Part shown: one piece after another, positions 4,291 to 44,500 of the stretch
How positions within the stretch are numbered: the first letter of the stretch is position 1
Layout: every line of letters starts with the position of its first letter
Origin: Botryllus schlosseri
Lineage: Eukaryota
Assembly: GCA_051294905.1 (NCBI GenBank)
Contig: CM119372.1
Location: 34,660,001 to 34,724,000, forward strand
DNA: 64,000 nt
Direction: 5' to 3'
Program-made: the position numbers and the translations under genes
Notes under the pieces: generated by a model
The model's input: the letters and a program-made list of their open reading frames with translations, nothing else
Database searches by the model: none
What the model was told of the DNA's origin: nothing

Positions 4291-4364
4291 TATAAATTGA
4301 AAAAAATCAATGGTATGAAAAAATAATTAGAATTTCGAATTTAGCGCCCGATAAACGAGGATCA

Positions 4365-8380: not shown

Positions 8381-8998
8381 TAGGGTTGTTCAAAAAAAAC
8401 TTTTTTTTCCAAATCTCACTCGCCTATTGACTAAATCGTCAGGTTGTCCAAGAAAACGATGCACACCAAATTTGACTCAATTCCAACCAGTAACGGCCGT
8501 GCAATCTTGAATTTAAATTTTTAAATTATTATTAAAAATAAAAAAATAAAAATTCTCAAATTTTTCTGTCAACCCCATGAAATTGTTGAGCTGTCTTCAA
8601 AGACGATGCAAAACAAATTTGAGCCAATTCCGACTTGTAGAAGCGGAGTTATGTGAGTTTTTCGTTGATAAATCGCGGATTATCCACCAATCAAGGATAA
8701 TCCGAGAATTAGCAACTAAAAACTCCAATAATTCCGCTTCTACAAGTCGGAATTGGCTCAAATTTGTTTTGATCGTCTTTGAAGACAGCTCAACAATTTC
8801 ATGGGGTTGACAGAAAAATTTGAGAATTTTTATTTTTTTATTTTTAATAATAATTTAAAAATTTCAATTCAAGATTGCACGGCCGTTACTGGTTGGAATT
8901 GAGTCAAATTTGGTGTGCATCGTTTTCTTGGACAACCTGACGATTTAGTCACTAGGCGAGTGAGATTTGGAAAAAAAAGTTTTTTTTGAACAACCCTA
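8381..8998. mobile_element. Fold-back MITE with ~270-290-bp inverted arms, hAT-like
   Basis: Termini TAGGGTTGTTCAAAAAAA...TTTTTTTGAACAACCCTA with near-identical arms. Perfect 8-bp TSD TTGAACAT at 8373-8380 and 8999-9006. Confidence 0.9.
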
Positions 8999-9031
8999 TT
9001 GAACATTCGTAGCAGCGAATACGGAGAAAAT

Positions 9032-9216: not shown

Positions 9217-10799
9217 GTAGGTGCACTTAGTGCAGGGTTGCCTTATATCCGGAATTTCCCGGACATGTCCGGAATTTCACCGTTAAAACTGCGTCCAGGA
9301 GGAAATTCTAAAATAAGCCAAAATGTCCGGAATTTTGAATGCTTGAAATATGATCAATTTTATGTCGTATATTAACATAAACGATATATTATATTGGGCA
9401 GATTTATGCCACTTGAAAATTCTCTTCGCGCTATGCGAGATTAAGCGTCACAATCATTGATTTGAAAATGCGTACCACCGCTCTCGCAATACATGCAATA
9501 AAAAATAAATATAAATAACCATCATTTACTAAAATAAATCTAATTGTAATCGCAATTGTAGGAGAACGGTATATTCCTAAAGTCGGTAAAGCCGTTTAGA
9601 TGCTTTAATCTGGGGTTCGCGAAGATGTTGTTCGTATTCAGCTTCCGAAATAGGCAGTGAGTAAGTCTGGGAAAAGGTGCTGACCGATTTACAGTAATCA
9701 GCTTATCAAATTCTGAGCTGGGCCACAAAACATTTTTAAATTAGAAATGGAGTCGCGACCATGAAAGTTTGAATACCACCGCTAACTATGATCATGTAGG
9801 TGAAGAGAGGATCACATTTTATAGTCATATATGGAAGAACCAGTGTTGGGATCAAGTCACTACTTTCGAGTCACGAGTCATTTCGAGTCATGGCACATTT
9901 TGACTTGAGTCAAGTCAAGTCAATCGATTTTCAAATATTACTCGAGTCAAGTCAAGTCACTTGATTTTTGGAGGTGACTCGAGTCAAGTCGAGTCAGGTC
10001 GAGTCAAGTCGAGTCAAGTCGAGTCAAGTCGAGTCAAGTCGAATCAAGTCGAGTCAAGTCGAGTAACGTCGAGTCAAGTCAAGTCAAGTCACGAGTCAAG
10101 TCAAAATTCAAGTCAAGTTGACTTTTCGAAGTACGAGGCATGATTACGTCATTGCATTTTGCTAGCTGTCTGAAATACAGATGGAGTGGTCATTGATTTT
10201 GAACCGATGAACGAATATAGAGTTAAATATACACACAAAAAGGCGCTGTATCGCTCACATATAAGTGGAACTGCTAAACTACGTAAATAATTGCATATCC
10301 TCAGTCATAGTTACCAGCCAAAATAGAGAATAGAGAAACGAATTGATAAGATGCCATACATTACCCATTTACAAATTGATATGATACAATTCGAGCCTGC
10401 GCCCATGGTTGAGGACTCTATAATCTATATTTGATTTCAATTTCAATAAAACAAGAGGTTTGGTGAAGGTAAGAGCAGAGAACAGTAGTATACATTTTGC
10501 TCTAAAATTACTTTACTATACTATAAGTTTACGACAACGTAAGCTGTGAACTTCGGTCAATTCGTTTGCGGTCAATTTATTTGTGAGAGAACAATGGAGC
10601 CTCAGTAAAACGCACGATCATTAAATGATTGGTCGCTCTCACGGTTACACCAACGGTTCGCGAACAATCCGATCATATGCAAGAAACAGTCGCTTTTATC
10701 GACACCGATTACTTTATGACTTGAAATAGACTCGTGAATTTTGTTCCGAGTCACGAGTCAATGCACATTTCTGATACGCCAGTAGTTAGTATGATCGCT

Positions 10800-11095
10800 C
10801 GTGATGTGGCAGGGGCTCTTATGGGCGGGGTGGTGAGGTGCCTGAAAACCGGGGGTGGTGAGGTGACCCTTATCTCTTATGGCGGGGGTGGTGAGGTGCC
10901 ATGTGTTCTTATGGGTGCGGTCGTGATTCGCCTTTTCGGGTATAGGCCGCGGTCGTGATTCGCCGTGAAAACTCGTGGTCGTGACTCGCCTTTTTTGCTA
11001 TAGGCGGTGGCGGTGATTCGCCTGTTATGTATTCTTACGGGTTCTGCGGTGATTTACCATGTGTTCTTATGGGTGCGGTCGTGATTCGCACTTTC
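10800..11095 (+). repeat. GC-rich subterminal repeats of element 1 (mirrored at ~23825-24120)
   Basis: Reiterated GGGGTGGTGAGGTG(CC) and GGTCGTGATTCGCC / TCTTATGGG motifs. Confidence 0.85.
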
Positions 11096-14000
11096 AGACA
11101 TCTCTCGCATGGTGTTGAATATGTACGAGTCACCAACAATAACCGCACAAACGGAAACGTGGCTTGTTGTGAGGATTAAGCAGTGCGTGCGACCTATATT
11201 TCGAATGACCTGCGCGCTGAATTGTTTCCGTGAAGTCGTGTGCTACTATCGATTATTACACTAGACCATTCAGTGCGAAATAGTTTGCTAAATCTAGGAA
11301 TCAGTCGCATGGTGTTACTTTAGTAATTAGTTTACCACAGAGCCGGCGTAGCCGGTGATTCGAATACCGACAATAACCGCGTTCACAAACCAACACTTCA
11401 AAAATGTGTGAAATATTTGTAAAACCCTGCGATCGCTGACAAGATAATGTCTCGAACATAACCATCTTTAGCGACTTGGTGTTACAGACATGCCGATCGC
11501 TCACAAGGTAATATTTCCGCAATAAGTTTGTCACAGAGCCGGCGCAGACGGTGATTCGTAAACCAACAATTTGACACTTTCTGGTGGTCGCTATATGTTT
11601 GACACTTCGGAACGCGGTTGACTTTAGTTGTATGATAAGAATCATGCGAAAATGCAAGTAACGTGTCAATTTGTCAACTTGAAATGAAACTTACTACACA
11701 GCTCAAGTTGATTCGTATCTGAATGTGTTAATTCGGTACAATTCTAATTATTTCGAGAAATATTTTCGTGATCTTTTGATTCGACTGTAACCTAAATATT
11801 GCTGACGCCGACTTTCAGCCACATTGAATTATTCGCACATTCCACACCGCTGTTTTCACACCTATAGAATGAATACCAACTATAACTCTACAAGAATCAA
11901 GAATCACAAGTATGCGCATTATACAGTTATTGTCTTTATCAACATGAAATCAAACTCTTAACAAAAACACGCGACTAATCATTTGTCAACTCTAACATTA
12001 TCAAAAAAATTCCAGTATTGTTGATTGAAAATCCTCGAGTCTTTATTTTTAAGAATGTTATAGTACGGTGTCGGAATCCATTCGCGGATGTACTAAAGGT
12101 AAATTCAGATAATCCAGAATGAAATATTTTGACTTTGACATAGTGTGAATTGAAATAGGATTGACAAACATGACTAGCAACTTCCCCACAGTCCCGTTTC
12201 GATATTATACACACATTGATTTGAAACAAGTAATGTAACATTACAACTCTATTCACAGTTTTCCGTTTGTCAAATAGAGTTTCAGTAAATAATTTCACTA
12301 TGCTATCGCGATATTTTAATGTGTTACTACACACAATCAAGTCAATCAATGAAATCGCACCTGTTGTAAATATTTCACACTTGACAACCGCTTGCACATA
12401 ACACGATCGAGTTGCAATGCGATGAGTTGAATCGGAATATTTCAACCTACTTTGTCAAATCGCGATTTGAAGTAGGATCGCCAGACAGACTGGGTAAACT
12501 TTCACTCCAATGCGTTTCAGATTAATTTATTCACACGATCACCATCTCGCTGTCTTCACACTTACACAATCGCGTACTGTTTCCACTCGCAACTTCGGTA
12601 CGATATTTCAACTTGTCACAATAACTGATTATTCACATGTTGATTTGAAACAAAAGAAACCTTGAACAAGTTATCTGGGTATTTTTTGTCGCAATTGAGT
12701 TAATGGAAATAGTATTACACCTCGAAATTTTAACATCTTACCATACTCAAAAGAGTCAATCATGAAAACCTTGTCAAGTAAATCCGTAAACCTTGTCAAC
12801 TAAATCCGTTTGTAACTTACCAGACCAACTAGACAGTACCCGTACAGAAAGAAGACAAGATTACGCGAGTACATACAATCGCTACAAACTAAAATCCATA
12901 ACAAGTTCGGTTGTAGTCATATACCACCAAATCATCTTTGCTCAACTGTAAAAGTCGTTACTACGCTGTAAGATAAAGTAATTACTACTCGGTAAATTTT
13001 ATAAACCAAAGTAAATACTACTCGGTGTGTGGTTTGAGATTAACATATTACATTTGAGTATACGAAATTTGAATGTCCGGACACGTAGTTGAGAATTCTT
13101 ACGATCAAACGCGGGTGTTATATTGAAAATTTTCACGAATTGACACATTGATTTTGACATATGAGATTTTGTAATAGTCGATCATGACTTGATTATTAAA
13201 TTATGACATTATTAGACCAGGGTTGTGTTGAAGGTTATTACGATACCAACAAACTTTTCAGAAACATTGTTATTAGCATATCGATTTGTGAAACTAGATT
13301 AACATGTCTGAAATGTTTTGATTGGGAAGATTAAGCCGTGTTCATAAAAACCACGCAGCGTATTGTGGATATCAGGAAATATTTTACAAATGTAATTGTC
13401 TCCACTAACCAAGACTAAAGATGAAACACCAATTTCCTTTGTTGAACAATAACCGGTACAATACTTTATCATCGTAATCTGCGGTGAGAATTGAAACACT
13501 TTCGCACATTATCCGGTGTCAAGATAGCACACTAGGTGAATTGACATACCGCCGCTTGATTAATGCTTAATCCGTTCGCACCATTTCACATACTTTGATC
13601 ATTACAAAAGTAAATTGGAATATGCTTGCTAGATGCATTCAGTTAGAAATGTCTGGTACACAACAATCGTAATATCAAGGAAGTACTTGCTACACTGTAA
13701 TTCACTTAACGTGTTTTGCATTGTTGTTCATTTGTAGTATTGATTGTTTTTGAACCTCCAAATAATAATTCCCGACATGAAACCAAACCGCTGAAAGTCG
13801 TTACCATCACAACGAAACAATTTGTACGATGTTTGCCAAATGTATCCTATAGTTAGGTGTACTAGAATCACTGGTCCAACACATACACCGACAATGCAAT
13901 CGAAATTTTCCCCATTGTCATCCGTCAAAGTAAAGGTCGTCACAATACTCAACCCATAAAAGATCTTACTTGTATGTGATTGAATCGCAGGTAATTAACC

Positions 14001-15764
14001 CACTAAATCAAACCATAAGGAAATTTCACTCACTCATCGGATATGAAACAGCGTCACTTAATCGGCGTAGATCGTTTTACTAAATGCAAATCATACCTGA
14101 CCAACAGAAAACAATTTTCACTCACCTTGTAATGAAACCAAGTGGTGGGCCTTCGTTCAATATTTTGTCTGTGTCAAATACTTTGTAATAAACACAATGG
14201 AGTGGTTGAGCTTTACATCATCAAGCTGTCATTAATAAATCAAGATTTCGGTAAACTTGTAAATGTATCGTTTAACTAACCGAGTTGTATGCACAGTTTG
14301 ATATTTTTGCCATTTAGTGATTGCTGAACATACCACTTCGAAATACTGCGTTAATCTCAATTCCCTTTGTCCTGATAATCGAAGTACTTTTGTTTTGAAT
14401 TCATAACAACCGACTATGACATGATAAATTAGAAGATTTAGAAGATTGGTTGCATATCACTAAAAATAATATACCACACATATTATTACTGTTACTCCAT
14501 TCATCGGTATTTTTTCCGTTGTCGATTTTCAAACGAGTAAAATTTATTACTTGAGTTGCTCTGCTTACTATATTTAAATGTAAACTCACCCGTCTTTCAA
14601 CAACAAACAATGTTAAAAAAGTATGCAATCAAACACAACAAGTTTTACGATACTAATTATTATCCCACATAACCCATTTCTTACCGAAGACATATGAAAT
14701 ATATTCATGTTACACGAAAATATTCGCTCATGCTACAAACCTGTACAATGATTGGTGGTGCTTTCAAACTGTTTCGATACCTCAAGAACTTTATTGTCTG
14801 AATGGTTGTTCATGTATCGTAATAATCAAGTAGTTCAACACAGAACTAGTATTAACAGAAACACCAGCGTTGTTTACACAAAAGTTTGTATGTGTACAGT
14901 ATGCGAATACCGTGTGTAAGTCCAGCACAATTGTGGTATCCATACGAGTTTAGTTAACACAATTTACGACACCGAGGTCGCCTCATCTTTCGTAAGACAA
15001 CAAACCAAGGCTTCAGGATATGTCCATGTCATAACAATAAATCAGCTACTCCAACAACAGAGTACATATGTTTTCTAGTTACGGTGCTTACATCTTACAC
15101 ACAAATCGACCTACTTTGCTAACGAAAAGCGCTGAGTCATCACAACAATACAACTAAAACATACTATCATACAAATTGGTCGTTATAGTTTGCCCACCAA
15201 CGATACATCGTACAAGTAGCAAGTCTCGAGAATCCAGTTATTCAAAAAACGTGAAAGTGTTTCTACACCAAGTCGGTATGTTGACGAAAGCATATATTGT
15301 AATATCATGATCGATTTACATTCGTTGGTCACAAAATGTCACTACTCTAAATAATTATTTTTCACTCAAAGCCTACTTGTCATCATTCGTTTCATCAAGC
15401 ACGAGTTCAAGAAACCTGCTACGACATGAATTGTTAATTTTATGTTGTGTAAATAGGTAATAATTAATTTTAGTAACACTATATCAACATCATCGAGTTG
15501 TGCGAATAGATTTACATGTGGTCTTGTGGTTTTAATCGAAGTATACAGCACGGTCTAATGTAGAGTCATCTCTATTGTACAACAACTCGGTAATCGAAAT
15601 GCATTAAAATTTTAACAACGATATTGGTTCGTCGCACCAAAAATATGTTTACTATCACGATACTCTACACAGGCCGTGTAAATCCTTTTCACACTCGTAA
15701 TAGTATACCAACAGCTACCGGCGACAACGTTTAACAATACCAACGACACTAAACATACGATACC

Positions 15765-16270
15765 TACCCAAGTAAAATTACCATTTTCACCTGGAGGTCG
15801 GTCGTAACCCGAGTAGAAATACCATTATCCTTTGGAGATTTATCGTTTACCCAGTGTAACAAACCCCTTTTCCTTTGGTAATTTATTTTTCTCTGGGTAA
15901 CAAACCTTTTTCAGTTGGAAATATATTTTTTCTCTGGGTAACAAACCTTTTTCACTTGGAAATATATTTTTTCTCTGGGTAACAAACCTTTTTCACTTGG
16001 AAATATATTTTTTCCCCCGGTAACAAACCTTTTTCCCTGAGCAACAAACCATTTTCACTTGGAAATATATTTTTCCCTGGGTAACAAACCTTTTTCGCTT
16101 GGAAATATATTTTTTCCTTGAGCAACAAACCATTTTCACTTGGCGGGTCGTCGTTTACCTGACTAAAAATATCATTTTCCTTTGGAGATCTGGCGTTTAC
16201 CCAGTGTAACAATACATTTTCTCTTGGTCATCTAGCTTTTCCTAGAGTAACAAAACCATTTTCATTTTGA
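15765..16270 (+). repeat. ~41-bp tandem array in the left arm of element 1
   Basis: Unit GGTAACAAACCTTTTTCACTTGGAAATATATTTTTTCTCTG, roughly 11-12 copies, degenerate at the edges. Confidence 0.9.
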
Positions 16271-17533
16271 AATCTGACAAACACACCTGACAATTTGGTA
16301 TTTGTTGTATTGACGATAGTTTGAAATAGATTACAACGAACAGTGACGGAAATATACACGGACTACCGGTTTCAGAGTATACCCCCTTCAGTCGTATCAC
16401 ATCAATATCATCGGTTACCCACATACAATATCCTCTTGTACACCGAAATGTATGTTTTGGAAAATTGGACAATAGACTTCGATAGTTCTGTGATGTCCGG
16501 GTTCGTGCTTTGGATTTTCCAGAGTCAAAATGTCTGAATAAAACACCTCCTCGACGATGGTTGGTATGTGGATAACGGGGTTCGGAGGACGGTTGGATTT
16601 ATGTCACCCATCGCGATAACAATTCCAGGTCGAATTTTTCCCCGCATGTTTACTATATTGTGTCTTTATTGGTCAATGTATGTCTCGACATTCAGTTTGA
16701 AATCGGAAACCCTGATAAAGTATGTAACCGGATCCGGATATCAACTCTGAATCGATAAACCAATGAACAATATTCAAAGTAAACATGTTACATTCCACGA
16801 AAAAATACCATCCGGACATACGTCGCGCTTGTTTGCCCACAACATATTACGCGTAAATGGAGGTGTGTGACATTGCATGCAATGTGTTGGTATACAAACA
16901 TCGATCCACAGACATTATCATAGCCGGTAGTTTTGATGTAGATCGAATGTCATCACACCCGATAACAATGTCATACCAATAAGCCACATTGCAATGACTC
17001 TGAGTCCGCGCTATTACATCGATATTTCGACACCGTTCACTGATTTATTCGATGGTGTTATCGCAAGATAGTCATGACCCTATCTGTAGACGGACCACCC
17101 AGATCAATTGGATACATCGGTCAATATCCATCGTGTTGTCGACACCGAAGTTTTCTGCTGAGACTACAGCGTTTGATCTAGGTGAACTATCGAAGTACGG
17201 TGCTCGAAATGATTGCGATCAGTCTTTCAGTCACGATCAATGGATGTCGCTACTGCCACATAACGACTCCGGATAAATATCGTGCAAATGTCGGACTGAT
17301 ATTGTGATCAAATAAGGTATGTTTCTGTGGAATGAAGACTGCGATCGTACACCACAATAGAACACTACCTCGTGATTTCACACGCAATCATAAAACACAC
17401 TTTCGTAAGGGTCTAGCTCGTCCGGTGACATTTCGAAACGGTCGTCACCACAAGAGATCGGGGTTGGTCTCGTCATATCGGAGCATTTTGAAACGGTGTC
17501 GTCACAAGGCTATTGACGTCGATTCAGTTGGTC

Positions 17534-17809
17534 ATGTCAATCCGTTTTACAAAGTACCGTTTTTCAAGTCCCTGCACCATAGTGTTACGACACAGACAAG
17601 ATGCGACGGTGGAAATAATAAAACACGGAAGGCACACTTTGGTGTTATTTGACATGGATTTTACACCAGACGAACCTCACATTCGAGCGACGAATTGGAA
17701 TGACCTTTGTATTATTGACGTCGAAGGGAAAGAAATGTATCGATTTATCGGATTTGTACATATCCAACAAAAATCTGGGTATATGATTGTGCATGGTTCG
17801 CATATTTGA
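17534..17809 (+). CDS. Candidate small orphan ORF (91 aa) in the unique spacer of element 1
   Basis: ATG-initiated MSIRFTKYRFSSPCTIVLRHRQDATVEIIKHGRHTLVLFDMDFTPDEPHIRATNWNDLCIIDVEGKEMYRFIGFVHIQQKSGYMIVHGSHI. Composition is protein-like but I recognise no domain. Confidence 0.25.
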   Translation: MSIRFTKYRFSSPCTIVLRHRQDATVEIIKHGRHTLVLFDMDFTPDEPHIRATNWNDLCIIDVEGKEMYRFIGFVHIQQKSGYMIVHGSHI

Positions 17810-18649
17810 CTGTGAACGCTCTATTGGTATATGTTGTACAGTTTACTTTCACCGTCGTGCGAATAACCATGTCAAGTTCCATGTTTGTGTGTCTATATGT
17901 CACGCTTCAGATTGACTCAGAGTCATTGCAATGTGGCTTATTGGTATGACATTGTTATCGGGTGTGATGACATTCGATCTACATCAAAACTACCGGCTAT
18001 GATAATGTCTGTGGATCGATGTTTGTATACCAACACATTGCATGCAATGTCACACACCTCCATTTACGCGTAATATGTTGTGGGCAAACAAGCGCGACGT
18101 ATGTCCGGATAGTATTTTTTCGTGGAATGTAACATGTTTACTTTGAATATTGTTCATTGGTTTATCGATTCAGAGTTGATATCCGGATCCGGTTACATAC
18201 TTTATCAGGGTTTCCGATTTCAAACTGAATGTCGAGACATACATTGACCAATAAAGACACAATATAGTAAACATGCGGGGGAAAACTCGACCTGGAATTG
18301 TTATCGCGATGGGTGACATAAATCCAACCGTCCTCCGAACCCCGTTATCCACATACCAACCATCGTCGAGGAGGTGTTTTATTCAGACATTTTGACTCTG
18401 GAAAATCCAAAGCACGAACCCGGACATCACAGAACTATCGAAGTCTATTGTCCAATTTTCCAAAACATGCATTTCGGTGTACAAGAGGATATTGTATGTG
18501 GGTAACCGATGATATTGATGTGATACGACTGAAGGGGGTATACTCTGAAACCGGTAGTCCGTGTATATTTCCGTCACTGTTCGTTGTAATCTATTTCAAA
18601 CTATCGTCAATACAACAAATACCAAATTGTCAGGTGTGTTTGTCAGATT

Positions 18650-19155
18650 TCAAAATGAAAATGGTTTTGTTACTCTAGGAAAAGCTAGATGACCAAGAGA
18701 AAATGTATTGTTACACTGGGTAAACGCCAGATCTCCAAAGGAAAATGATATTTTTAGTCAGGTAAACGACGACCCGCCAAGTGAAAATGGTTTGTTGCTC
18801 AAGGAAAAAATATATTTCCAAGCGAAAAAGGTTTGTTACCCAGGGAAAAATATATTTCCAAGTGAAAATGGTTTGTTGCTCAGGGAAAAAGGTTTGTTAC
18901 CCGGGGAAAAAATATATTTCCAAGTGAAAAAGGTTTGTTACCCAGAGTAAAAATATATTTCCAAGTGAAAAAGGTTTGTTACCCAGAGAAAAAATATATT
19001 TCCAACTGAAAAAGGTTTGTTACCCAGAGAAAAATAAATTACCAAAGGAAAAGGGGTTTGTTACACTGGGTAAACGATAAATCTCCAAAGGATAATGGTA
19101 TTTCTACTCGGGTTACGACCGACCTCCAGGTGAAAATGGTAATTTTACTTGGGTA
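18650..19155 (-). repeat. Mirror copy of the ~41-bp tandem array in the right arm of element 1
   Basis: ATATTTCCAAGTGAAAAAGGTTTGTTACCCAGAGAAAA units. Confidence 0.9.
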
Positions 19156-22100
19156 GGTATCGTATGTTTAGTGTCGTTGGTATTGTTAAACGTTGTCGCC
19201 GGTAGCTGTTGGTATACTATTACGAGTGTGAAAAGGATTTACACGGCCTGTGTAGAGTATCGTGATAGTAAACATATTTTTGGTGCGACGAACCAATATC
19301 GTTGTTAAAATTTTAATGCATTTCGATTACCGAGTTGTTGTACAATAGAGATGACTCTACATTAGACCGTGCTGTATACTTCGATTAAAACCACAAGACC
19401 ACATGTAAATCTATTCGCACAACTCGATGATGTTGATATAGTGTTACTAAAATTAATTATTACCTATTTACACAACATAAAATTAACAATTCATGTCGTA
19501 GCAGGTTTCTTGAACTCGTGCTTGATGAAACGAATGATGACAAGTAGGCTTTGAGTGAAAAATAATTATTTAGAGTAGTGACATTTTGTGACCAACGAAT
19601 GTAAATCGATCATGATATTACAATATATGCTTTCGTCAACATACCGACTTGGTGTAGAAACACTTTCAGGTTTTTTGAATAACTGGATTCTCGAGACTTG
19701 CTACTTGTACGATGTATCGTTGGTGGGCAAACTATAACGACCAATTTGTATGATAGTATGTTTTAGTTGTATTGTTGTGATGACTCACCGCTTTTCGTTA
19801 GCAAAGTAGGTCGATTTGTGTGTAAGATGTAAGCACCGTAACTAGAAAACATATGTACTCTGTTGTTGGAGTAGCTGATTTATTGTTATGACATGGACAT
19901 ATCCTGAAGCCTTGGTTTGTTGTCTTACGAAAGATGAGGCGACCTCGGTGTCGTAAATTGTGTTAACTAAACTCGTATGAATACCACAATTGTGCTGGAC
20001 TTACACACGGTATTCGCATACTGTACACATACAAACTTTTGTGTAAACAACGCTGGTGTTTCTGTTAATACTAGTTCTGTGTTGAACTACTTGATTATTA
20101 CGATACATGAACAACCATTCAGACAATAAAGTTCTTGAGGTATCGAAACAGTTTGAAAGCACCACCAATCATTGTACAGGTTTGTAGCATGAGCGAATAT
20201 TTTCGTGTAACATGAATATATTTCATATGTCTTCGGTAAGAAATGGGTTATGTGGGATAATAATTAGTATCGTAAAACTTGTTGTGTTTGATTGCATACT
20301 TTTTTAACATTGTTTGTTGTTGAAAGACGGGTGAGTTTACATTTAAATATAGTAAGCAGAGCAACTCAAGTAATAAATTTTACTCGTTTGAAAATCGACA
20401 ACGGAAAAAATACCGATGAATGGAGTAACAGTAATAATATGTGTGGTATATTATTTTTAGTGATATGCAACCAATCTTCTAAATCTTCTAATTTATCATG
20501 TCATAGTCGGTTGTTATGAATTCAAAACAAAAGTACTTCGATTATCAGGACAAAGGGAATTGAGATTAACGCAGTATTTCGAAGTGGTATGTTCAGCAAT
20601 CACTAAATGGCAAAAATATCAAACTGTGCATACAACTCGGTTAGTTAAACGATACATTTACAAGTTTACCGAAATCTTGATTTATTAATGACAGCTTGAT
20701 GATGTAAAGCTCAACCACTCCATTGTGTTTATTACAAAGTATTTGACACAGACAAAATATTGAACGAAGGCCCACCACTTGGTTTCATTACAAGGTGAGT
20801 GAAAATTGTTTTCTGTTGGTCAGGTATGATTTGCATTTAGTAAAACGATCTACGCCGATTAAGTGACGCTGTTTCATATCCGATGAGTGAGTGAAATTTC
20901 CTTATGGTTTGATTTAGTGGGTTAATTACCTGCGATTCAATCACATACAAGTAAGATCTTTTATGGGTTGAGTATTGTGACGACCTTTACTTTGACGGAT
21001 GACAATGGGGAAAATTTCGATTGCATTGTCGGTGTATGTGTTGGACCAGTGATTCTAGTACACCTAACTATAGGATACATTTGGCAAACATCGTACAAAT
21101 TGTTTCGTTGTGATGGTAACGACTTTCAGCGGTTTGGTTTCATGTCGGGAATTATTATTTGGAGGTTCAAAAACAATCAATACTACAAATGAACAACAAT
21201 GCAAAACACGTTAAGTGAATTACAGTGTAGCAAGTACTTCCTTGATATTACGATTGTTGTGTACCAGACATTTCTAACTGAATGCATCTAGCAAGCATAT
21301 TCCAATTTACTTTTGTAATGATCAAAGTATGTGAAATGGTGCGAACGGATTAAGCATTAATCAAGCGGCGGTATGTCAATTCACCTAGTGTGCTATCTTG
21401 ACACCGGATAATGTGCGAAAGTGTTTCAATTCTCACCGCAGATTACGATGATAAAGTATTGTACCGGTTATTGTTCAACAAAGGAAATTGGTGTTTCATC
21501 TTTAGTCTTGGTTAGTGGAGACAATTACATTTGTAAAATATTTCCTGATATCCACAATACGCTGCGTGGTTTTTATGAACACGGCTTAATCTTCCCAATC
21601 AAAACATTTCAGACATGTTAATCTAGTTTCACAAATCGATATGCTAATAACAATGTTTCTGAAAAGTTTGTTGGTATCGTAATAACCTTCAACACAACCC
21701 TGGTCTAATAATGTCATAATTTAATAATCAAGTCATGATCGACTATTACAAAATCTCATATGTCAAAATCAATGTGTCAATTCGTGAAAATTTTCAATAT
21801 AACACCCGCGTTTGATCGTAAGAATTCTCAACTACGTGTCCGGACATTCAAATTTCGTATACTCAAATGTAATATGTTAATCTCAAACCACACACCGAGT
21901 AGTATTTACTTTGGTTTATAAAATTTACCGAGTAGTAATTACTTTATCTTACAGCGTAGTAACGACTTTTACAGTTGAGCAAAGATGATTTGGTGGTATA
22001 TGACTACAACCGAACTTGTTATGGATTTTAGTTTGTAGCGATTGTATGTACTCGCGTAATCTTGTCTTCTTTCTGTACGGGTACTGTCTAGTTGGTCTGG

Positions 22101-22678
22101 TAAGTTACAAACGGATTTAGTTGACAAGGTTTACGGATTTACTTGACAAGGTTTTCATGATTGACTCTTTTGAGTATGGTAAGATGTTAAAATTTCGAGG
22201 TGTAATACTATTTCCATTAACTCAATTGCGACAAAAAATACCCAGATAACTTGTTCAAGGTTTCTTTTGTTTCAAATCAACATGTGAATAATCAGTTATT
22301 GTGACAAGTTGAAATATCGTACCGAAGTTGCGAGTGGAAACAGTACGCGATTGTGTAAGTGTGAAGACAGCGAGATGGTGATCGTGTGAATAAATTAATC
22401 TGAAACGCATTGGAGTGAAAGTTTACCCAGTCTGTCTGGCGATCCTACTTCAAATCGCGATTTGACAAAGTAGGTTGAAATATTCCGATTCAACTCATCG
22501 CATTGCAACTCGATCGTGTTATGTGCAAGCGGTTGTCAAGTGTGAAATATTTACAACAGGTGCGATTTCATTGATTGACTTGATTGTGTGTAGTAACACA
22601 TTAAAATATCGCGATAGCATAGTGAAATTATTTACTGAAACTCTATTTGACAAACGGAAAACTGTGAATAGAGTTGTA

Positions 22679-22945
22679 ATGTTACATTACTTGTTTCAAA
22701 TCAATGTGTGTATAATATCGAAACGGGACTGTGGGGAAGTTGCTAGTCATGTTTGTCAATCCTATTTCAATTCACACTATGTCAAAGTCAAAATATTTCA
22801 TTCTGGATTATCTGAATTTACCTTTAGTACATCCGCGAATGGATTCCGACACCGTACTATAACATTCTTAAAAATAAAGACTCGAGGATTTTCAATCAAC
22901 AATACTGGAATTTTTTTGATAATGTTAGAGTTGACAAATGATTAG
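22679..22945 (+). CDS. Candidate small orphan ORF (88 aa from ATG; mirrored at 11975-12241 on minus), with a frameshifted homolog in element 2
   Basis: MLHYLFQINVCIISKRDCGEVASHVCQSYFNSHYVKVKIFHSGLSEFTFS... Element 2 (~43459-43607) encodes MLHYLFQINVCIISKCEWVKVGRYACQS/YFNSDYVKVEIFHFGLSEFTFS with a 1-bp deletion. Confidence 0.25.
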   Translation: MLHYLFQINVCIISKRDCGEVASHVCQSYFNSHYVKVKIFHSGLSEFTFSTSANGFRHRTITFLKIKTRGFSINNTGIFLIMLELTND

Positions 22946-25457
22946 TCGCGTGTTTTTGTTAAGAGTTTGATTTCATGTTGATAAAGACAATAACTGTATA
23001 ATGCGCATACTTGTGATTCTTGATTCTTGTAGAGTTATAGTTGGTATTCATTCTATAGGTGTGAAAACAGCGGTGTGGAATGTGCGAATAATTCAATGTG
23101 GCTGAAAGTCGGCGTCAGCAATATTTAGGTTACAGTCGAATCAAAAGATCACGAAAATATTTCTCGAAATAATTAGAATTGTACCGAATTAACACATTCA
23201 GATACGAATCAACTTGAGCTGTGTAGTAAGTTTCATTTCAAGTTGACAAATTGACACGTTACTTGCATTTTCGCATGATTCTTATCATACAACTAAAGTC
23301 AACCGCGTTCCGAAGTGTCAAACATATAGCGACCACCAGAAAGTGTCAAATTGTTGGTTTACGAATCACCGTCTGCGCCGGCTCTGTGACAAACTTATTG
23401 CGGAAATATTACCTTGTGAGCGATCGGCATGTCTGTAACACCAAGTCGCTAAAGATGGTTATGTTCGAGACATTATCTTGTCAGCGATCGCAGGGTTTTA
23501 CAAATATTTCACACATCTTTGAAGTGTTGGTTTGTGAACGCGGTTATTGTCGGTATTCGAATCACCGGCTACGCCGGCTCTGTGGTAAACTAATTACTAA
23601 AGTAACACCATGCGACTGATTCCTAGATTTAGCAAACTATTTCGCACTGAATGGTCTAGTGTAATAATCGATAGTAGCACACGACTTCACGGAAACAATT
23701 CAGCGCGCAGGTCATTCGAAATATAGATCGCACGCACTGCTTAATCCTCACAACAAGCCACGTTTCCGTTTGTGCGGTTATTGTTGGTGACTCGTACATA
23801 TTCAACACCATGCGAGAGATGTCTGAAAGTGCGAATCACGACCGCACCCATAAGAACACATGGTAAATCACCGCAGAACCCGTAAGAATACATAACAGGC
23901 GAATCACCGCCACCGCCTATAGCAAAAAAGGCGAGTCACGACCACGAGTTTTCACGGCGAATCACGACCGCGGCCTATACCCGAAAAGGCGAATCACGAC
24001 CGCACCCATAAGAACACATGGCACCTCACCACCCCCGCCATAAGAGATAAGGGTCACCTCACCACCCCCGGTTTTCAGGCACCTCACCACCCCGCCCATA
24101 AGAGCCCCTGCCACATCACGAGCGATCATACTAACTACTTACGCCAAGTCAAGTCATTTTAGCAAAATGACTCGAGTCAAGTTAAGTCATTCGAAAAAGG
24201 TGACTCGAGTCTGACTCGAGTCAAGTCATGACTCGGGTCATCCCAACACTGGGAAGAACCAATATTATAGACAGACTTCATTCACAAAATTAAACGAACA
24301 GATGCATATAGAAACCAGATGTATATAGTAAGCCCTCCAGTAGTTGCATAGATTACTCTATGGTGGGCTCAAGATCAGTGTTCATTTGGACGGGAGGGGG
24401 CTGAAAAAATGTTGTTTCGGTCCTGCTTACAAAATACAAGCACAAAAATGCACCGGCCTAACATGATAGCGGCTCCTGATCCGGATCTTGACCATCTCTG
24501 TCGATAGGCAAATATTTGCTAGTGTGACGTCATATTGACAGACAATGTGTCCTAGCTCATTTTGAAATCCGCTAGTTGGTGCTAAAGAATGCCCGCGGAA
24601 TTTGCTTCACAAAAATATATAACCCTAACCTAATGATGTCTAAAACAGGTCGGAGGTTTATTGGCATTGGCTCAACACTATCAGAAATTTCATCTCGTAA
24701 TCAATAACTTCTACTCTTTACAAGTGGAAGTAGCTATTTTCAAGACCAGACGTTGGTTGTCAGCACCGAAGTACTTATAATTGTCCGGAGTACCTAAGTA
24801 AGTTTTGCCTTTCATACTACGTACTCGAGGGGTTTTGCCTTCAGACCGCTTTCACTTCTACTAAACAGTTTTGACGCAAAACCTTATATTATTTGCCCCT
24901 GGTAGTTTTGCAAAGTAGAAGGTATTTTTTGGATAGGTTTGTATACCTTTTTGAGTGCCACTATCGTATTAACTCAGTCAATCGATCTATTTGTAGTGTC
25001 ATCAGTCATTTTACGTTGTCGTGAAGATTCTCAAAAGTAGCCCAGTCTTCGGTTTAGTACTAAAACCTCGACCAAATGGATCAAAACTCACCCGAGTACT
25101 TTTCCAATCTTTCATTTGCTACTTCTAACTAGTAGTAGTACAGGGGTTGGCAACCCATGGCTCACGAGCCGCATGCGTGAAAGTACTTCTAACTGTACGC
25201 GCGTAGATCACAGTACGTATATTATTTCGTATCACACTGCATCTCACGACCATATGCATGGTCCGTGGTATGTATTTTTCAATTGCAAACCTATATGATA
25301 AAGCTTACCTGAGTATACACATCTATATATATATGCTTCAAATTTCACATGCGGTCTTCAAGTGTATGTTGTTTTGGCTTGCGAAACACGGACAAATCCG
25401 GTCATCTTTGTTTAAACATGTAGATACATAGGGTATTGATATTATCATGTTTTACAG

Positions 25458-34981: not shown

Positions 34982-37900
34982 AGTAGTATATATGATCGGT
35001 CGTGGTGTGCGCTTTTTTGCATGGGGTAGTATAGGCGGGGTGGTGAGCGGCTGGGAAAGCGGGGGTGGTGAGCGGCTCTTATTTCTTATGGCGGGGGTGG
35101 TGAGCGGCTATTGCGTCTTATGGCGGGGGTGGTGAGCGGCTCTTATTTCTTATGGCTGGGGTCGTGAGCGGCTGGAAAACCGGGGGTTGTGAGCGGCTTT
35201 TATGTCTTATGGCGGGGGTCGTGAGCGGCTCTTATTTCTTATGGGCGGGGTCGCAAGCGGCTGGGAAACCGGGGGTGGCAAGCGGCTTTTATGTCTTATG
35301 GCGGGGGGTGGCGAGCGGCTATTGTGTCTTGTGGTCGCACTGGCGAGCGGCTCTTATTTCTTATGGGCGCGGCGGCGAGCGGCTATTGCGTTTTATGGCG
35401 GGGGTGACAAGCGGCTATTACGTCTTATGGCATCTCTCGACCGGTGACCCTTTTCGGTATAGGGATCGCTCAACCGGTGTCTCGATCTTATGGCGGGGTC
35501 GCAAGCGGCTCTTATTTCTTATGGCCATTGTGTCTTATGGAGCCTCTCAACCGGTAACCCTTTTCGGTATAGGGATCGTTCGACCGGTGCCGCGAAAACT
35601 CGTCTTGAACCGGTGACCCTTTTCGGTATATGCATCTCTCGACCGGTGTTGAATATGTATCAAGTAAATAGTCATGTGAATGAATCTTTGTTAATGTGTA
35701 TATCGTGAAAACTCGTGGTCGTGACTCGCCTTTTTTACTATAGGTGGTGACGGTGATTCGCCCACCGTGTATTCTTACGGGATCTGTGGTGATTCGCCAT
35801 GTGTTCTTATGGGTGCGCTCGCATTTCGTACTTTCAGGTATAGGTATCTCTCGCATATCGTACTTTCGGGTATGGACATCCCTTAACAGGAAATTCACTA
35901 ATCCGCAGTGCATTGTGCGATTTTGAAAACCAGATCTTGGCGGTTGTATTTTGACCTGTGTGACCCACTAAATACGTCCGTTTTGGAAATTCGGAGCGCG
36001 CACTATCATATCGATTATTCCACTAATCCAGTCGGTGCTATTACATTCAGCAGTATTCGGTATTCAGCAGCGACACGAAAAGCGACCAACAAATAACCGC
36101 GCTCGTAAATTAACACTTCAAAAAGTGTAAAATAGATTGCAAATCCAGCGATCGCTGACAAGATAATGTCTCGGGCATAACCATTTTTAGTGACTTGGTG
36201 TTACAAACATACCGATCGCTCACGCGGTGAAATTTTAGTAATCAGTTTGTCACAGAACTTGATTTCGCTGGTAAGATTTAATAAATACCGACTAACAGAA
36301 CCATCAGTGTGGGTAACTTGAATAGCAACAAATTATCACTTATTTCCGCCCTAACCCTAATCCTTTGTGAGATTACCACATACTCAAATAGATGCGAAAT
36401 AATTGTAAAATCATACAATCTTTTTAGGAATATTACTTGACTTGACCAACTTTCGGCTCTGTTTTCGATTTCCACACAGTCGCTATAAGTTTCCACGCTT
36501 CTAGAATAGGATTGACTTTAGACACGTCATAAGAATCATGGTAATATTCAATCAATGTGTCAATTTACCAACTCGAAATCTCACTCGCGCTACAAGTGAA
36601 GCTGAATTGTTTCCGAATATGATAATTTACCACCGCTCAGCGCCAAACTGACTCTGTATAACAATATTACGCATGCGCGGTATTTCAGAATGGTATAATG
36701 TCATTATCAGCAAATATTTCACAAACTTAATCGTTTACACGAATCAAAGCTAAAGTTGAAACGACAATATCAAGGTTTGAAACCTTACAACTCGATCAGT
36801 GATTTTTTATTCAACTGTAAAATAAGTTAATATTCTGTAAGACACAACAATTATTGCTCGGGTAATGTGACATTGAGATTACCAAATTGTATATTGAGTA
36901 TACGAGATTTGAATGTTTGACTAGTGATAGACTGAAAAATATCTCGCAAGAGAATCCATGTGTTATAATGCAGGCTATCGTGATACAAACAAATTCAATA
37001 CGGTATACCTATTAACCAATCGGCCCCCAACCCGAGATTCGAGTGTTCGATCAGTGCTCGATAAAAATTATTTTCATGTATACCAACTCTTGCGTTGTGG
37101 TGAAGGGTGTTACGATATGAGCAAAGTTTTAATAAACACCATTATCAGCACCCTGATTGAGAAAAAACTTGATTCGTATGTATGAAAAGTGTTTGATTGG
37201 GAATTTATCCATTTCTTACAATCCCGCCACTGTAATGAGGACTGGTATTATATGATTATTAAATAATATTTCACAAACTCAAGCCACTGTTTTTGAGGAA
37301 TGGTATTATATGATTACTAAATAATATTTCACAAACTCAACCCTAATCGTAAGACTTGAGAGAAATCACGTATTCGCTTGATGATAACACGCATGCGACA
37401 AAAAACATCACCGCGATTTTGTAAACTGATCATACTAATCAGGGTATTTACCATCACGCTTCTAGAATAGGATTGACTACTGAAGGTAAATTCAGATAAT
37501 CCAAAATGAAATATCTCAACTTTGACATAGTCTGAATTGAAATAGATTGACAAGCATACCTACCAACTTTAACCCACTCACATTTCGAAATTATGCACAC
37601 ATTGATTTGAAACAAGTAATGTAACATTACAACTCTATTCCCGATCCAGCTTTCCGTTTGTCAATGAGACATTTTAACATCTTACCATACTCAAAAGAAT
37701 TATTCAAAACATTAACAAGTGTTAAAAATCTAGTTTCCACTTACTTGATTATATCAGTACAACTAGCAAACTTGAATTAATTCATCTGGTTGTATTCATA
37801 TGACCGATAATTTTTATCCCACTGTAAAGGTTGTTATACTATTTTACAAGACAAAGTAATTATTCCTCGATATATTTTGGAAGACAAAAGTAATTTCTAC

Positions 37901-39521
37901 TCGGTGTAGGTGGCTTGAGATTAACATACTATGTTTGAGTGTACGAGATTTGCAAGTCTGATCAACGTAGTTGGGAATTCGTTTCTTACAATCGAACGCA
38001 GGCGTTATATTAAGAATTATCATGATGTAAACATAAGGATTGACACATTGATTTGACATATGAGGTTTTGTAACGGTCTATCATGACTTAATTATTAAAT
38101 TATTCACGATAATTAGACCCGGTGTTGTGGTAAAGATTATTATGACAGCAACAAACTTTTCACTACCACGGTTATTACCATATTGAGTTATAAAACTATT
38201 CGTGTATGAAATGTTCTTGATTGGTAAATTATTCCACCTTGGTACAAATCACTCTGCGTATCGCGGATGTCAGAAAATATTTTACATATGTAATTGTTTC
38301 CAGTTACCGAGACTAAAGATGAAACAACAATTTCGTTTACTGATTAACAACCGGCGCAATACTTCATTGTCGGAATCTGCGACTAAGAACTGAAACACAT
38401 ACCCGCATTACCCTGGTGTCAAGATGTGTGAATTGACATACCGCCGCTTGATTAATGCTTAATCCGTTCGCACCATTTCCCACACACTTTGATCATTACA
38501 AAAACAAATTGGAATATGTTTTCTAGACACCTCCTATTCAACTAGGCTTGAGTAATACAGAAAACTCTTAACATTAATAAAATCGAAACATATGCTTCAC
38601 TGAATACTAAAAAATGTGGTTGCATTGATGTTCAATGTTTTATAGTAGTGATCATAAATTATCATTTGAATCTTATAAAATTGTAATCATAAAACCACAC
38701 CACAGGAGGTCATCAAAAGCATATTGCAGGATGTTTGCTCTATGCATCCTAGTTTGGTAAACTGGAATTATTTGTAGAACGCACACCATCAAAGAAAAAC
38801 ACGCAACCACTAACACGATTCCTAGTTGAGATTGAACTCCTAGTCATTTTCTACGCGTGCACAACTATAGGGTCGTTCTTCTGGATACAAGACCTAAAAT
38901 TTTTGAGTTGTCAAAACGACACACATATTTGAAAATATCACTTACTTGGTTAAAGCTAATGCATCGACGGTAACAACCGACACGGATCATTACTATTTAT
39001 TTCATAATCATTTCAACAAAATTACACACACTGTACATTGTTGCTTTTTGCGTGACACGAGAATAAATCAGATCACAACGAACTTAATGTGTATTTTACT
39101 CACTCGTCGCATTATGAATATTGACCAACATCGTTTCAACGTCGTGCATCGTTTTGCCGAATACGAAATATGTTAGTGTAGCAAATGTTTTAGCGTAACA
39201 GAAAACTATTTTCACTTTCTTGACTTTTGAAAACAATACACGCACATTTTGTTTGTGTCAACTATAGTTACTTGTAAGATACGACTGATAATCCCCGCGA
39301 CTCATACAAAAGTATGAAAGATATTTACATCACGCAAAGTACTCGACCTTACACGATATTTTTGGTACTACGAAACTCAAGAATGATTGCCTACGCTTTC
39401 AAAGTAAAGAATGACGAAAAGTGCTGAGTCATCATATGATTGCCGGCACAACAAAACGACTAGTAGATGGAGCCGTAAAAAAAATGTTCCTAACCCTTAG
39501 CACACCAGTGACAAATCGTGC
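34982..39521 (+). repeat. Left inverted arm of element 2 (4540 bp)
   Basis: Reverse complement of 41569-45893. Mirror ORF sums are 81086-81090. About 211 bp extra in the subterminal repeats. Confidence 0.95.
35030..35650 (+). repeat. GC-rich subterminal repeat array of element 2
   Basis: ~30-bp units TCTTATGGCGGGG(G)T(C/G)GTGAGCGGCT..., followed by ACCGGTGACCCTTTTCGGTATAGGGATCG units. Confidence 0.9.
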
Positions 39522-40199
39522 AATGGATATGTTTTGTCGAGTTGTTGTTGAGCGTCAAGTCTTCGTGTTGAACCGTACATTTGAACAGCGCAACCACGAT
39601 CCAATTGTAACCACGAATCTATTTTCATTTTGACACAAACTGTCGCGTACAGAAAAATAAATTTTCTTTCCTCAACACATACTTGTATCCAATCACTTTC
39701 GTCAAACACGCAACTCAATAAAATTGTTTACTTTCTACAACATCAAAACCCCGATTTAGTTGTACATATTGTTGAGAAATATTTTTATTAATCAAAACCA
39801 TCGATTTCTGTTCATGGTGTTAGTGTGTGCATGTCATACCTGTGGGCCCCTCCGTATTAAAATGGACACGACACGACTGAATGTAAGGGGATAGAAGTCT
39901 ATCGCATCGATTTACATGTGGTCTTCGCTACGGTTTCAAAAAACGAATCATCTATTTTGCATTGGTCGAGACCGAGCGAGTCAGTTACATGTATTCACGA
40001 TAATGATTTTGCTTGTCATATGCGAATGATAGGGTTGCTACTCCGACAAATCAAATCAACATACAACAATCTTCTGACGATCATAATAGCAATTTCATTT
40101 TCTGCCCCTTCGTAACTGTATATGCACGAAAAGTATATTGTACAACTCGGCAACTACGTTTAACAAGACCAATCACACTACCATCGTTGAACACAAGAT

Positions 40200-40895
40200 A
40201 CCTACCCAAGTCAAAATATCATACTGGTTTGGACAACTGATGTTTACCTGTGTAAAATTATCATTTTCACTTGGAGGTCAACCGTTACCTGACTAAAATA
40301 CCATTGTCCTTTGGCGATTTATCGTTTACCCCGTGTAACAAACCTTTTTCCCTTGGAAATCTATTTTTTCTCTGGGTAACAAACCTTTTTCACTTGGAAA
40401 TCTATTTTTTTCTCTGGGTAACAAACCTTTTTCACTTGGAAATATATTTTTTCTCTGGGTAACAAACCTTTTTCACTTGGAAATATATTTTTTCCCTGAA
40501 CAACAAACCATTTTCACTTGGAAATAAACTTTTACCTAGAGTAACTAACCATTTTCTTTTGGAAATATATTTCCCCCTAGGTAACAAACCCTTTTCGTTT
40601 GGAAAACTATCATTTACCTGAGTACCAATACCGTTTTCACTTGGAAATCTATCTTTTCCCTGGGTAACAATACCATTTTCGTTTGGAAATCAATCGTTAC
40701 CTAGAGTAACAACCCATTTTGGTCTGGAAATATATTTTTCCCCTGAATAATAAACCATTTTCGTTTGGAAATATATTTTTTCTCTGAGTAACAACACACT
40801 TTTCGTTTGGAAATATATTTTTTCTCTGAGTAACAACATAATTTTCGTTTGGAGATGCGATGTTTACCCAAGTAAAAATACCATTTGAGTTTTGA
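40200..40895 (+). repeat. ~41-bp tandem array in the spacer of element 2 (same unit as in the element 1 arms)
   Basis: GGTAACAAACCTTTTTCACTTGGAAATATATTTTTTCTCTG-type units, roughly 16 copies. Confidence 0.9.
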
Positions 40896-41568
40896 AATCT
40901 GACAACCACACGCATCAATTTGGTATTTGCTGTATTGGTGAAAGTTTGAAATAGATTACAACGAACAGTGACGAAAATATACACGACAATCGGTTTCAGA
41001 GTATACTCACGTCGGTAGCAACACATCTATATCATCGGTTAACCACATGAAATAACAATATAATCTTGTATATCGAAATGTATGCTTTGGAAAATGACGA
41101 ATATTGTGTGTGTGTGTATGTGTCCGGGCTCGTACTTTAGTTTTTGCACAGAGTCTATACATCTGAATAAAACACCACCTCGACTTTGGTACCTGGTTCG
41201 TACATGGATAACACTACTTGTGATTTTTATCACACGTTTACTATATTGTGTCACTCTTTATTGGTCAATACATACCCCACCGTTCAGTCTGAAATCGAAA
41301 ACCCGAGAAAGTATTAACCGGATCCGGATATCAACTCTGAATCAAAAAACCAATGAAACATGTTACACCCTGTGTTTCCATGAAAAAAACAAGACATTAC
41401 ACATCAAGTAAACTTCACGATTGTTCACAAGTATTCGCGTAAACGAGGTGTGTGACATTACATACATCATGGATAACATCATGGCCGACATTACAAGCAT
41501 CATGGATGACAAATTCATGTTCTCAAGTCTCATACATGAACCGACTCTGTACGTTCAATGTGGGGGTA

Positions 41569-44500
41569 GCACGATTTGTCACTGGTGTGCTAAGGGTTAG
41601 GAACATTTTTATTACGGCTCCAGCTACTAGTCGTTTTGTTGTGCCGGCAATCATATGATGACTCAGCACTTTTCGTCATTCTTTACTTTGAAAGCGTAGG
41701 CAATCATTCTTGAGTTTCGCAGTACCAAAAATATCGTGTAAGGTCGAGTACTTTGCGTGATGTAAATATCTTTCATACTTTTGTATGAGTCGCGGGGATT
41801 ATCAGTCGTATCTTACAAGTAACTATAGTTGACACAAACAAAATGTGCGTGTATTGTTTTCAAAAGTCAAGAAAGTGAAAATAGTTTTCTGTTACGCTAA
41901 AACATTTGCTACACTAACATATTTCGTATTCGGCAAAACGATGCACGACGTTGAAACGATGTTGGTCAATATCCATAATGCGACGAGTGAGTAAAATACA
42001 CATTAAGTTCGTTGTGATCTGATTTATTCTCGTGTCACGCAAAAAGCAACAATGTACAGTGTGTGTAATTTTGTTGAAATGATTATGAAATAAATAGTAA
42101 TGATCCGTGTCGGTTGTTACCGTCGATGCATTAGCTTTAACCAAGTAAGTGATATTTTCAAATATGTGTGTCGTTTTGACAACTCAAAAATTTTAGGTCT
42201 TGTATCCAGAAAAACGACCCTATAGTTGTGCACGCGTAGAAAATGACTAGGATTTCAATCTCAACTAGGAATCGTGTTAGTGGTTGCGTGTTTTTCTTTG
42301 ATGGTGTGCGTTCTACAAATAATTCCAGTTTACCAAACTAGGATGCATAGAGCAAACATCCTGCAATATGCTTTTGATGACCTCCTGTGGTGTGGTTTTA
42401 TGATTACAATTTTATAAGATTCAAATGATAATTTATGATCACTACTATAAAACATTGAACATCAATGCAACCACATTTTTTAGTATTCAGTGAAGCATAT
42501 GTTTCGATTTTATTAATGTTAGGAGTTTTCTGTATTACTCAAGCCTAGTTGAATAGGAGGTGTCTAGAAAACATATTCCAATTTGTTTTTGTAATGATCA
42601 AAGTGTGTGGGAAATGGTGCGAACGGATTAAGCATTAATCAAGCGGCGGTATGTCAATTCACACATCTTGACACCAGGGTAATGCGGGTATGTGTTTCAG
42701 TTCTTAGTCGCAGATTCCGACAATGAAGTATTGCGCCGGTTGTTAATCAGTAAACGAAATTGTTGTTTCATCTTTAGTCTCGGTAACTGGAAACAATTAC
42801 ATTTGTAAAATATTTTCTGACATCCGCGATACGCAGAGTGATTTGTACCAAGGTGGAATAATTTACCAATCAAGAACATTTCATACACGAATAGTTTTAT
42901 AACTCAATATGGTAATAACCGTGGTAGTGAAAAGTTGCTGTCATAATAATCTTTACCACAACACCGGGTCTAATTATCGTGAATAATTTAATAATTAAGT
43001 CATGATAGACCGTTACAAAACCTCATATGTCAAATCAATGTGTCAATCCTTATGTTTACATCATGATAATTCTTAATATAACGCCTGCGTTCGATTGTAA
43101 GAAACGAATTCCCAACTACGTTGATCAGACTTGCAAATCTCGTACACTCAAACATAGTATGTTAATCTCAAGCCACCTACACCGAGTAGAAATTACTTTT
43201 GTCTTCCAAAATATATCGAGGAATAATTACTTTGTCTTGTAAAATAGTATAACAACCTTTACAGTGGGATAAAAATTATCGGTCATATGAATACAACCAG
43301 ATGAATTAATTCAAGTTTGCTAGTTGTACTGATATAATCAAGTAAGTGGAAACTAGATTTTTAACACTTGTTAATGTTGTGAATAATTCTTTTGAGTATG
43401 GTAAGATGTTAAAATGTCTCTTTGACAAACGGAAAGCTGGATCGGGAATAGAGTTGTAATGTTACATTACTTGTTTCAAATCAATGTGTGCATAATTTCG
43501 AAATGTGAGTGGGTTAAAGTTGGTAGGTATGCTTGTCAATCTATTTCAATTCAGACTATGTCAAAGTTGAGATATTTCATTTTGGATTATCTGAATTTAC
43601 CTTCAGTAGTCAATCCTATTCTAGAAGCGTGATGGTAAATACCCTGATTAGTATGATCAGTTTACAAAATCGCGGTGATGTTTTTTGTCGCATGCGTGTT
43701 ATCATCAAGCGAATACGTGATTTCTCTCAAGTCTTACGATTAGGGTTGAGTTTGTGAAATATTATTTAGTAATCATATAATACCATTCCTCAAAAACAGT
43801 GGCTTGAGTTTGTGAAATATTATTTAATAATCATATAATACCAGTCCTCATTACAGTGGCGGGATTGTGAGAAATGGATAAATTCCCAATCAAACACTTT
43901 TCATACATACGAATCAAGTTTTTTCTCAATCAGGGTGCTGATAATGGTGTTTATTAAAACTTTGCTCATATCGTAACACCCTTCACCACAACGCAAGAGT
44001 TGGTATACATGAAAATAATTTTTATCGAGCACTGATCGAACACTCGAATCTCGGGTTGGGGGCCGATTGGTTAATAGGTATACCGTATTGAATTTGTTTG
44101 TATCACGATAGCCTGCATTATATCACATGGATTCTCTTGCGAGATATTTTTCAGTCTATCACTAGTCAAACATTCAAATCTCGTATACTCAATATACAAT
44201 TTGGTTATCTCAATGTCACATTACCCGAGCAATAATTGTTGTGTCTTACAGAATATTAACTTATTTTACAGTTGAAAAAAAAATCACTGATCGAGTTGTA
44301 AGGTTTCAAACCTTGATATTGTCGTTTCAACTTTAGCTTTGATTCGTGTAAACGATTAAGTTTGTGAAATATTTGCTGATAATGACATTATACCATTCTG
44401 AAATACCGCGCATGCGTAATATTGTTATACAGAGTCAGTTTGGCGCTGAGCGGTGGTAAATTATCATATTCGGAAACAATTCAGCTTCACTTGTAGCGCG

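Follow-up and report, generated by a model that had tools for sequence, protein, structure and literature searches.

A 64,000-nt stretch of the genome of Botryllus schlosseri (assembly GCA_051294905.1, contig CM119372.1, positions 34,660,001-34,724,000 of the forward strand), which is termed the window in the following and to which all coordinates refer, contains a large palindromic insertion, Element 1, with the terminal motif and the target site duplication of Maverick/Polinton elements. Judged from its sequence, Element 1 is very likely dependent on Mavericks, and it probably represents a helper-dependent, snap-back-like Maverick satellite, that is, an element with Maverick/Polinton ends and without core genes for whose replication and integration an autonomous Maverick would supply the enzymes. 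An earlier note on this DNA had correctly described an insertion, but had recognized neither the Maverick/Polinton end motif nor the open frame in the loop of the palindrome. The parts of Element 1 are:

10781..24139, no strand: Element 1, 13,359 bp, 93% palindrome, ends AGTAGT...ACTACT
10781..17006, plus strand: left arm, 6,226 bp, from comparison of the window with itself
17914..24139, minus strand: right arm, 6,226 bp, 11 substitutions relative to the left arm
17007..17913, no strand: loop, 907 bp, second copy absent within the window
10775..10780, plus strand: left 6-bp target site duplication, TACGCC
24140..24145, plus strand: right 6-bp target site duplication, TACGCC
10781..11097, plus strand: subterminal region, GC-richer, with short repeats, 70-87% identical to Element 2
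15780..16276, plus strand: 41-bp minisatellite in the arm, shared with Element 2; its mirror copy lies at about 18644-19140

The two arms form a single gap-free inverted match and are 99.82% complementary; counting by alignment thus bore out the earlier estimate of near-perfect arms with about ten substitutions and no net indel, and the claim that the spacer is unique holds within the window. TACGCC stands immediately before the left arm and immediately after the right arm, an agreement at six of six positions that is expected by chance about three times in 10,000. The same combination of (AGT)2//(ACT)2 ends and a 6-bp target duplication is found in a second insertion of the window:

34982..45893, no strand: Element 2, 10,912 bp, Maverick end motif, 6-bp duplication CACATT

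In the literature, 5'-(AGT)2//(ACT)2-3' with a 6-bp duplication is given as the commonest type of Maverick terminus, with (AG)3//(CT)3 as an alternative motif, and intact vertebrate Mavericks are described as 12,723-24,620 bp long, with terminal inverted repeats (TIRs) of 46-1,447 bp and eight core genes (PMC8097293). Element 1 thus resembles autonomous Mavericks in its ends, its duplication, the possession of TIRs, and a length within the intact range, and it differs from them in that its arms are far longer than the TIRs reported there, that none of the eight core genes was found, and that almost the entire element is self-complementary.

No Maverick core gene (protein-primed polymerase B, integrase, ATPase, protease, capsid) was found in Element 1 or in Element 2. 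At E<=0.05, Pfam gave no match in any of the 12 read-through frames that cover both half-elements (six of them from Element 1), a search which heavily frameshifted remnants could escape. Likewise, no Pfam match above the cut-off was obtained for 26 of the 48 frames of Element 1 (the others being 20 right-arm mirrors and two edge frames) or for 17 of the 51 frames of Element 2, and a single-strand-binding gene was not found by Pfam in the scanned frames of either element. The longest stop-to-stop frames comprise 159 amino acids in Element 1 and 170 in Element 2. The former (11975-12454, minus strand) was considered as a gene and rejected: none of seven candidates scored, none of five viral stretches was confirmed, and in Element 2 the corresponding sequence is divided between two frames. 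Comparison of arm and loop with phage records yielded no match, Rfam yielded none either, and a bacterial promoter scan, which is not applicable to the host, remained at chance level. As no core gene was found, Element 1 is not an autonomous Maverick, although it has the same ends; the ends with their duplication, the lack of core genes, and a high copy number are the features of a non-autonomous derivative. The many diverged copies are evident from run X1, in which, the flanking repeat included, 57,620, 75,371, and 73,671 contigs match at 99% or more, 95-99%, and 90-95% identity, respectively.

Element 2 is built in the same manner. Its arms of 4,540 and 4,325 bp are 99.4% alike (26 substitutions, three indels), and it interrupts a repeat of which an uninterrupted sister is located at about 1770-2100. 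Both elements are collinear, with blocks of 70-87% identity. The centre of Element 2 (2,047 bp) is homologous to the inner arm of Element 1 up to about position 16918 and lacks the loop frame; left arm and centre together measure 6,587 bp. Element 2 is therefore probably a central-deletion derivative of a full palindrome from which the loop and one arm's inner portion were lost, although the order may be the reverse, with arms growing inward. At its inner end (16985-17006), the arm of Element 1 has two abutting short palindromes, one of 10 and one of 11 bases, where the template may have been switched; the second is made up of the same five letters as the array in the flanking repeat described below.

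Element 1 lies within a MITE (miniature inverted-repeat transposable element), the parts and relative of which are:

9841..10774, plus strand: left part of the split MITE, with a CAGTG end and five-letter GAGTC/AAGTC arrays
24146..24251, plus strand: right part of the split MITE
9833..9840 and 24252-24259, plus strand: left and right direct copies of the 8-bp duplication of the split MITE
52964..53808, minus strand: sister MITE without interruption, 845 bp, 67% identical, flanked by an 8-bp duplication of its own

The split MITE, presumably of hAT type in view of its CAGTG ends and 8-bp duplication, spans 9841-24251 and measures 1,046 bp after subtraction of Element 1 and one hexamer. As it has its own 8-bp duplication, the two flanks are the halves of one MITE copy. 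It was stated previously that Element 1 splits a (GAGTC)n MITE at TACGCC and that the sister crosses this point with a single hexamer, and both statements hold; the conclusion that the empty site is visible in the window has to be narrowed. The sister does represent the uninterrupted form of the family, but with 67% identity over 729 columns and a hexamer agreeing at four of six letters it is a paralogue and not the empty allele of the Element 1 locus. Public contigs from four runs, placed on 10120-17960 at 90% likeness, lead to the same distinction: contigs of uninterrupted MITE relatives depart at exactly position 10780 in all four runs (165, 57, 2, and 41 contigs) and run on from there as MITE sequence that exceeds the split copy by two five-letter units. 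They show the uninterrupted form of the family and are no proof of an empty allele at this locus. The insertion had also been called clean. This is true of the 6-bp duplication, but the array behind it is shorter than in the relatives, with two units in the split MITE, three in the sister, and four in more closely related copies, as read from the loose ends of public contigs; either slippage of the array or a small loss at insertion could account for the missing units.

How such an element might be propagated can be outlined from its architecture. Element 1 is self-complementary, with identical ends and an unpaired loop, as are snap-back or copy-back products, and it would have arisen as such a product, one end having been copied onto the other so that the same origin would be present at both ends. 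The subterminal region would be the candidate for this origin and for the binding of the integrase. Synthesis by the protein-primed polymerase of the helper would be initiated at the terminal AGTAGT; the strand displaced in this way would form, on folding, a stem of 6.2 kb closed by a loop of 0.9 kb. In the published Polinton model, which was derived from sequence analysis, a single strand folds into a racket by means of its TIRs, followed by protein-primed synthesis and integration (PMC4196379); the folded form of Element 1 would be this racket intermediate taken to an extreme. With TIRs over 93% of the length, a near-complete duplex with an intact end would be available as substrate for the polymerase and the integrase of the helper, and the arms could correct each other. 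Pairing of the arms in the folded intermediate, probably followed by gene conversion in the chromosome, would keep them alike. Finally, the retroviral-type integrase of the helper would insert the duplex and thereby create the 6-bp duplication. The loop would be the sole single-copy part and likely contains one small accessory gene.

That the arms are kept alike is indicated by comparison of the copies. In the best shared block, the arms of Element 1 differ at none of 725 bases and those of Element 2 by one base and a 4-base gap, whereas 119-121 differences separate the two elements in the same block. Among the positions variant in other copies (40 of 356 listed, 22 of these 40 in the arm), both arms of Element 1 have the same letter at 20 of the 22, which implies that they have been copied from each other since the lineage diverged. 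We marginally favour a process tied mainly to replication. An unlikely, though not negligible, alternative for an equally Maverick-dependent element is that gene conversion by the host after insertion keeps the arms alike, so that the palindrome would have no role in replication and the copy might be older than its divergence of 0.18% suggests. The distribution of the 11 differences is relevant here, as two of them are located within 623 bp of the tip, none in the next 3,537 bp, and nine in the inner 2,067 bp:

11404..14939, no strand: candidate conversion tract, zero arm differences, 3,537 bp between the neighbouring differences

The largest gap between differences has a P value of 0.001, which becomes 0.011 when the two differences in the minisatellite are dropped and a close pair is merged; under the same treatment, the Kolmogorov-Smirnov test weakens from 0.006 to 0.09, and all of these tests are post hoc. 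In the regions on either side of the tract the rate is about 0.3-0.4%, and the inner-arm rate of 0.44% equals the even rate of 0.45% in Element 2. In the simplest reading, the tract is one of internal conversion, formed in the chromosome or in the folded single strand. Several points weigh against replication as the main cause: the tract is internal, so that patchy chromosomal conversion accounts for it no less well than re-copying begun at the tip; Element 2 has no such tract, its 18 differences outside repeats being evenly spread (P 0.66); and long inverted repeats are reported to be maintained in chromosomes (PMC1803023, PMC7999016). Host conversion alone, however, gives no account of why the family keeps a shape that is 93% palindromic, Element 2 has apparently lost part of its centre, so that the host erodes this shape as well, and tracts can also arise by patchy repair in a folded single strand. 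Since the uneven differences and the tract indicate that the arms were probably partly re-equalized, their divergence is a poor clock. The earlier description of the insertion as young was accordingly too firm: the two intact duplications fit a recent event, but an age of 0.09-0.9 million years, calculated from the 11 differences with assumed rates of 1e-8 to 1e-9, is not relied on.

Two further alternatives concern the nature of Element 1 as such. The more probable of them, yet still very unlikely, is a giant fold-back DNA transposon of the FB, Galileo, or Mutator-like type, moved by a cut-and-paste transposase and Maverick-like at its ends by coincidence. Long arms, internal tandem repeats, and the lack of a coding core recall such elements. 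Their target duplications are 7-11 bp long, and fold-back arms consist largely of tandem repeats, whereas both elements of the window combine exact (AGT)2//(ACT)2 ends with 6-bp duplications, and tandem repeats make up less than one tenth of the Element 1 arm. The link to Mavericks, on the other hand, stands on a six-letter motif and the length of a duplication. No arm sequence could be tied to a Maverick gene, which leaves descent from the end of a parent element putative, and a scan for the end pattern gave no match in viral or metagenome contigs, an autonomous Maverick with these ends being likewise putative. These points count against the interpretation as a Maverick satellite. Extremely unlikely is an artefact of library or assembly, in the form of a fold-back read or of a head-to-head join between two alleles. 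The assembly of inverted repeats is difficult, none of the public contigs placed crosses the whole stretch, and the right junction (arm-loop-arm) is not among the 15 joints listed. The mirror, however, reaches exactly as far as the end motif and no further, and around it lie two nested direct duplications, the outer one belonging to the MITE whose direct halves form the flanks, which argues against a fold-back or mis-join; a fold-back artefact would have mirrored flanks as well, and Element 1 does not. Element 2, although diverged, is built alike. In four of four public runs, all 30 bins covering flank, arm, and loop were represented. Of the 24 runs listed for 16700-18200, 20 hold sequence words of this region and 16 hold half of them or more, across nine studies and two coded organisms; the best holder may be the sample of the assembly itself, but without the likely source study, runs of eight other studies hold words of the loop together with both arm junction regions. 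In agreement with the earlier note, the whole palindrome is thus taken as a real insertion with an integrase-type duplication and not as a fold-back library artefact. About half of the words of the 16700-18200 centre also occur in a second organism (B; runs X10 and X16), and in X10 each of the 30 bins is represented, though at low depth; this organism may be a related species, or the words may stem from contamination or transfer.

The loop of Element 1 contains an intact open frame:

17534..17809, plus strand: loop open frame, ATG to stop, 91 codons

It is rather likely, on the basis of sequence comparison, that this frame is a working gene. Its relatives form four protein clusters (eight members, none of them named) with identities of 84, 68, 64, and 63%, which have the same start, nearly the same end, representatives of 91-93 amino acids, and no internal gaps. 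Arm blocks compared between Elements 1 and 2 show about seven gap openings per length of the loop frame, and the ungapped relatives therefore favour a frame under constraint. This is tempered by the fact that the protein database in question contains open frames only and that the amino acid changes do not significantly exceed the neutral expectation in conservativeness (P 0.10-0.22). For the loop protein, Pfam gave no family at E<0.1, PHROG none below E 0.037, and solved structures no match; a longer relative was absent among 3,602 candidates, viral contigs contained no relative, and Atlas matches were weak or absent. The AlphaFold2 model was unusable (predicted local distance difference test score, pLDDT, of 36). 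Two additional hits among cluster representatives and three metagenome loci are WD40-type repeat proteins; they were rejected as homologues, the two representatives having scored through the summing of weak repeats with a best single stretch of 11.8 bits, and are a faint lead only. None of the runs listed as holding 16700-18200 is on record as an RNA run. As to function, it would be a guess that the product is an accessory factor with the helper or the host as its target.

Element 1 can be compared with several known systems. MITEs and fold-back transposons are likewise non-coding, palindromic, and mobilized in trans; Element 1 differs from them by its length of 13.4 kb, where the MITE interrupted by it measures about 1 kb, and by having the ends of a self-synthesizing, virus-like element. 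Short non-autonomous Polintons are present in Repbase. The nearest described form are the polintons of butterflies, which include mobile copies without polB and copies with gene-bearing TIRs of about 2 kb (bioRxiv 2025.02.07.637071); apparent mobility without an own polymerase and enlarged TIRs are shared with Element 1, whereas the butterfly elements retain other core genes and have TIRs about one third as long. Within its own family, this copy contributes duplications that are nested in one another, relatives without interruption from independent runs, and a tract free of arm differences. The closest working analogue would be the snap-back genome of adeno-associated virus (PMC8235507). Such genomes and copy-back/snap-back defective genomes (PMC13506859) are self-complementary from one end, have a single-stranded loop, and depend on a helper; they are transient by-products of infection, whereas Element 1 is integrated with a target duplication, belongs to a diverged family of many copies, and has no recognizable parent gene in its arms. 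No description of a palindromic or non-autonomous Maverick of this form was found in the literature, where supplementary or Repbase tables of TIRs could hold similar cases; the word palindrome is absent from the available part of PMC6431247. A dedicated class of Maverick satellites with a self-complementary genome of about helper length is a more far-reaching proposal which we regard as doubtful on the present sequence comparisons; here, one displaced strand would fold at once into a duplex that has a functional end, its replication would outpace that of the helper, the capsid of the helper would serve for packaging, and the single gene of the loop would act on helper or host.

The remaining observations in the window concern smaller elements and base composition. 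A fold-back element at 47812-49451 has arms of 777 bp (93%) and an 86-bp centre with a 69-bp repeat, and its ends read TAGGGTTG; the same ends are found in a MITE at 8378-9001 with arms of 242 bp (97%), of which a diverged relative is located at 4356-4599. A frame of 141 amino acids (5005-5430) with a weak match to a reverse-transcriptase zinc-binding domain below the cut-off (E 0.003) is possibly the remnant of a retroelement, and a short telomere-like array of the TTAGGG type lies near the end of the window (62565-62629). CpG is not depleted in the window, with an observed/expected ratio of 0.94-1.09 in flanks, 1.2 in arms, and 1.44 in the loop; this lack of depletion suggests that there is little decay by CpG methylation in the host.

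An animal genome is thus seen to carry many near-perfect palindromes of 10-14 kb, a type of structure usually deemed fragile. The 0.9-kb loop may make them tolerable, as long spacers lower the risk (PMC7999016). Such palindromes are easily taken for assembly errors and are overlooked by gene-based searches for Mavericks. With arms of 6 kb, each copy of the family becomes a record of the way in which one end is copied from the other, which would offer a handle on the replication of Mavericks, and elements of this type point to the cis sequences that are sufficient for mobilization. If the dedicated satellite class were real, an endogenous DNA virus of animals would possess, in these members, defective-interfering genomes that are inherited, and the differences between their arms would be a record of its replication mechanism.

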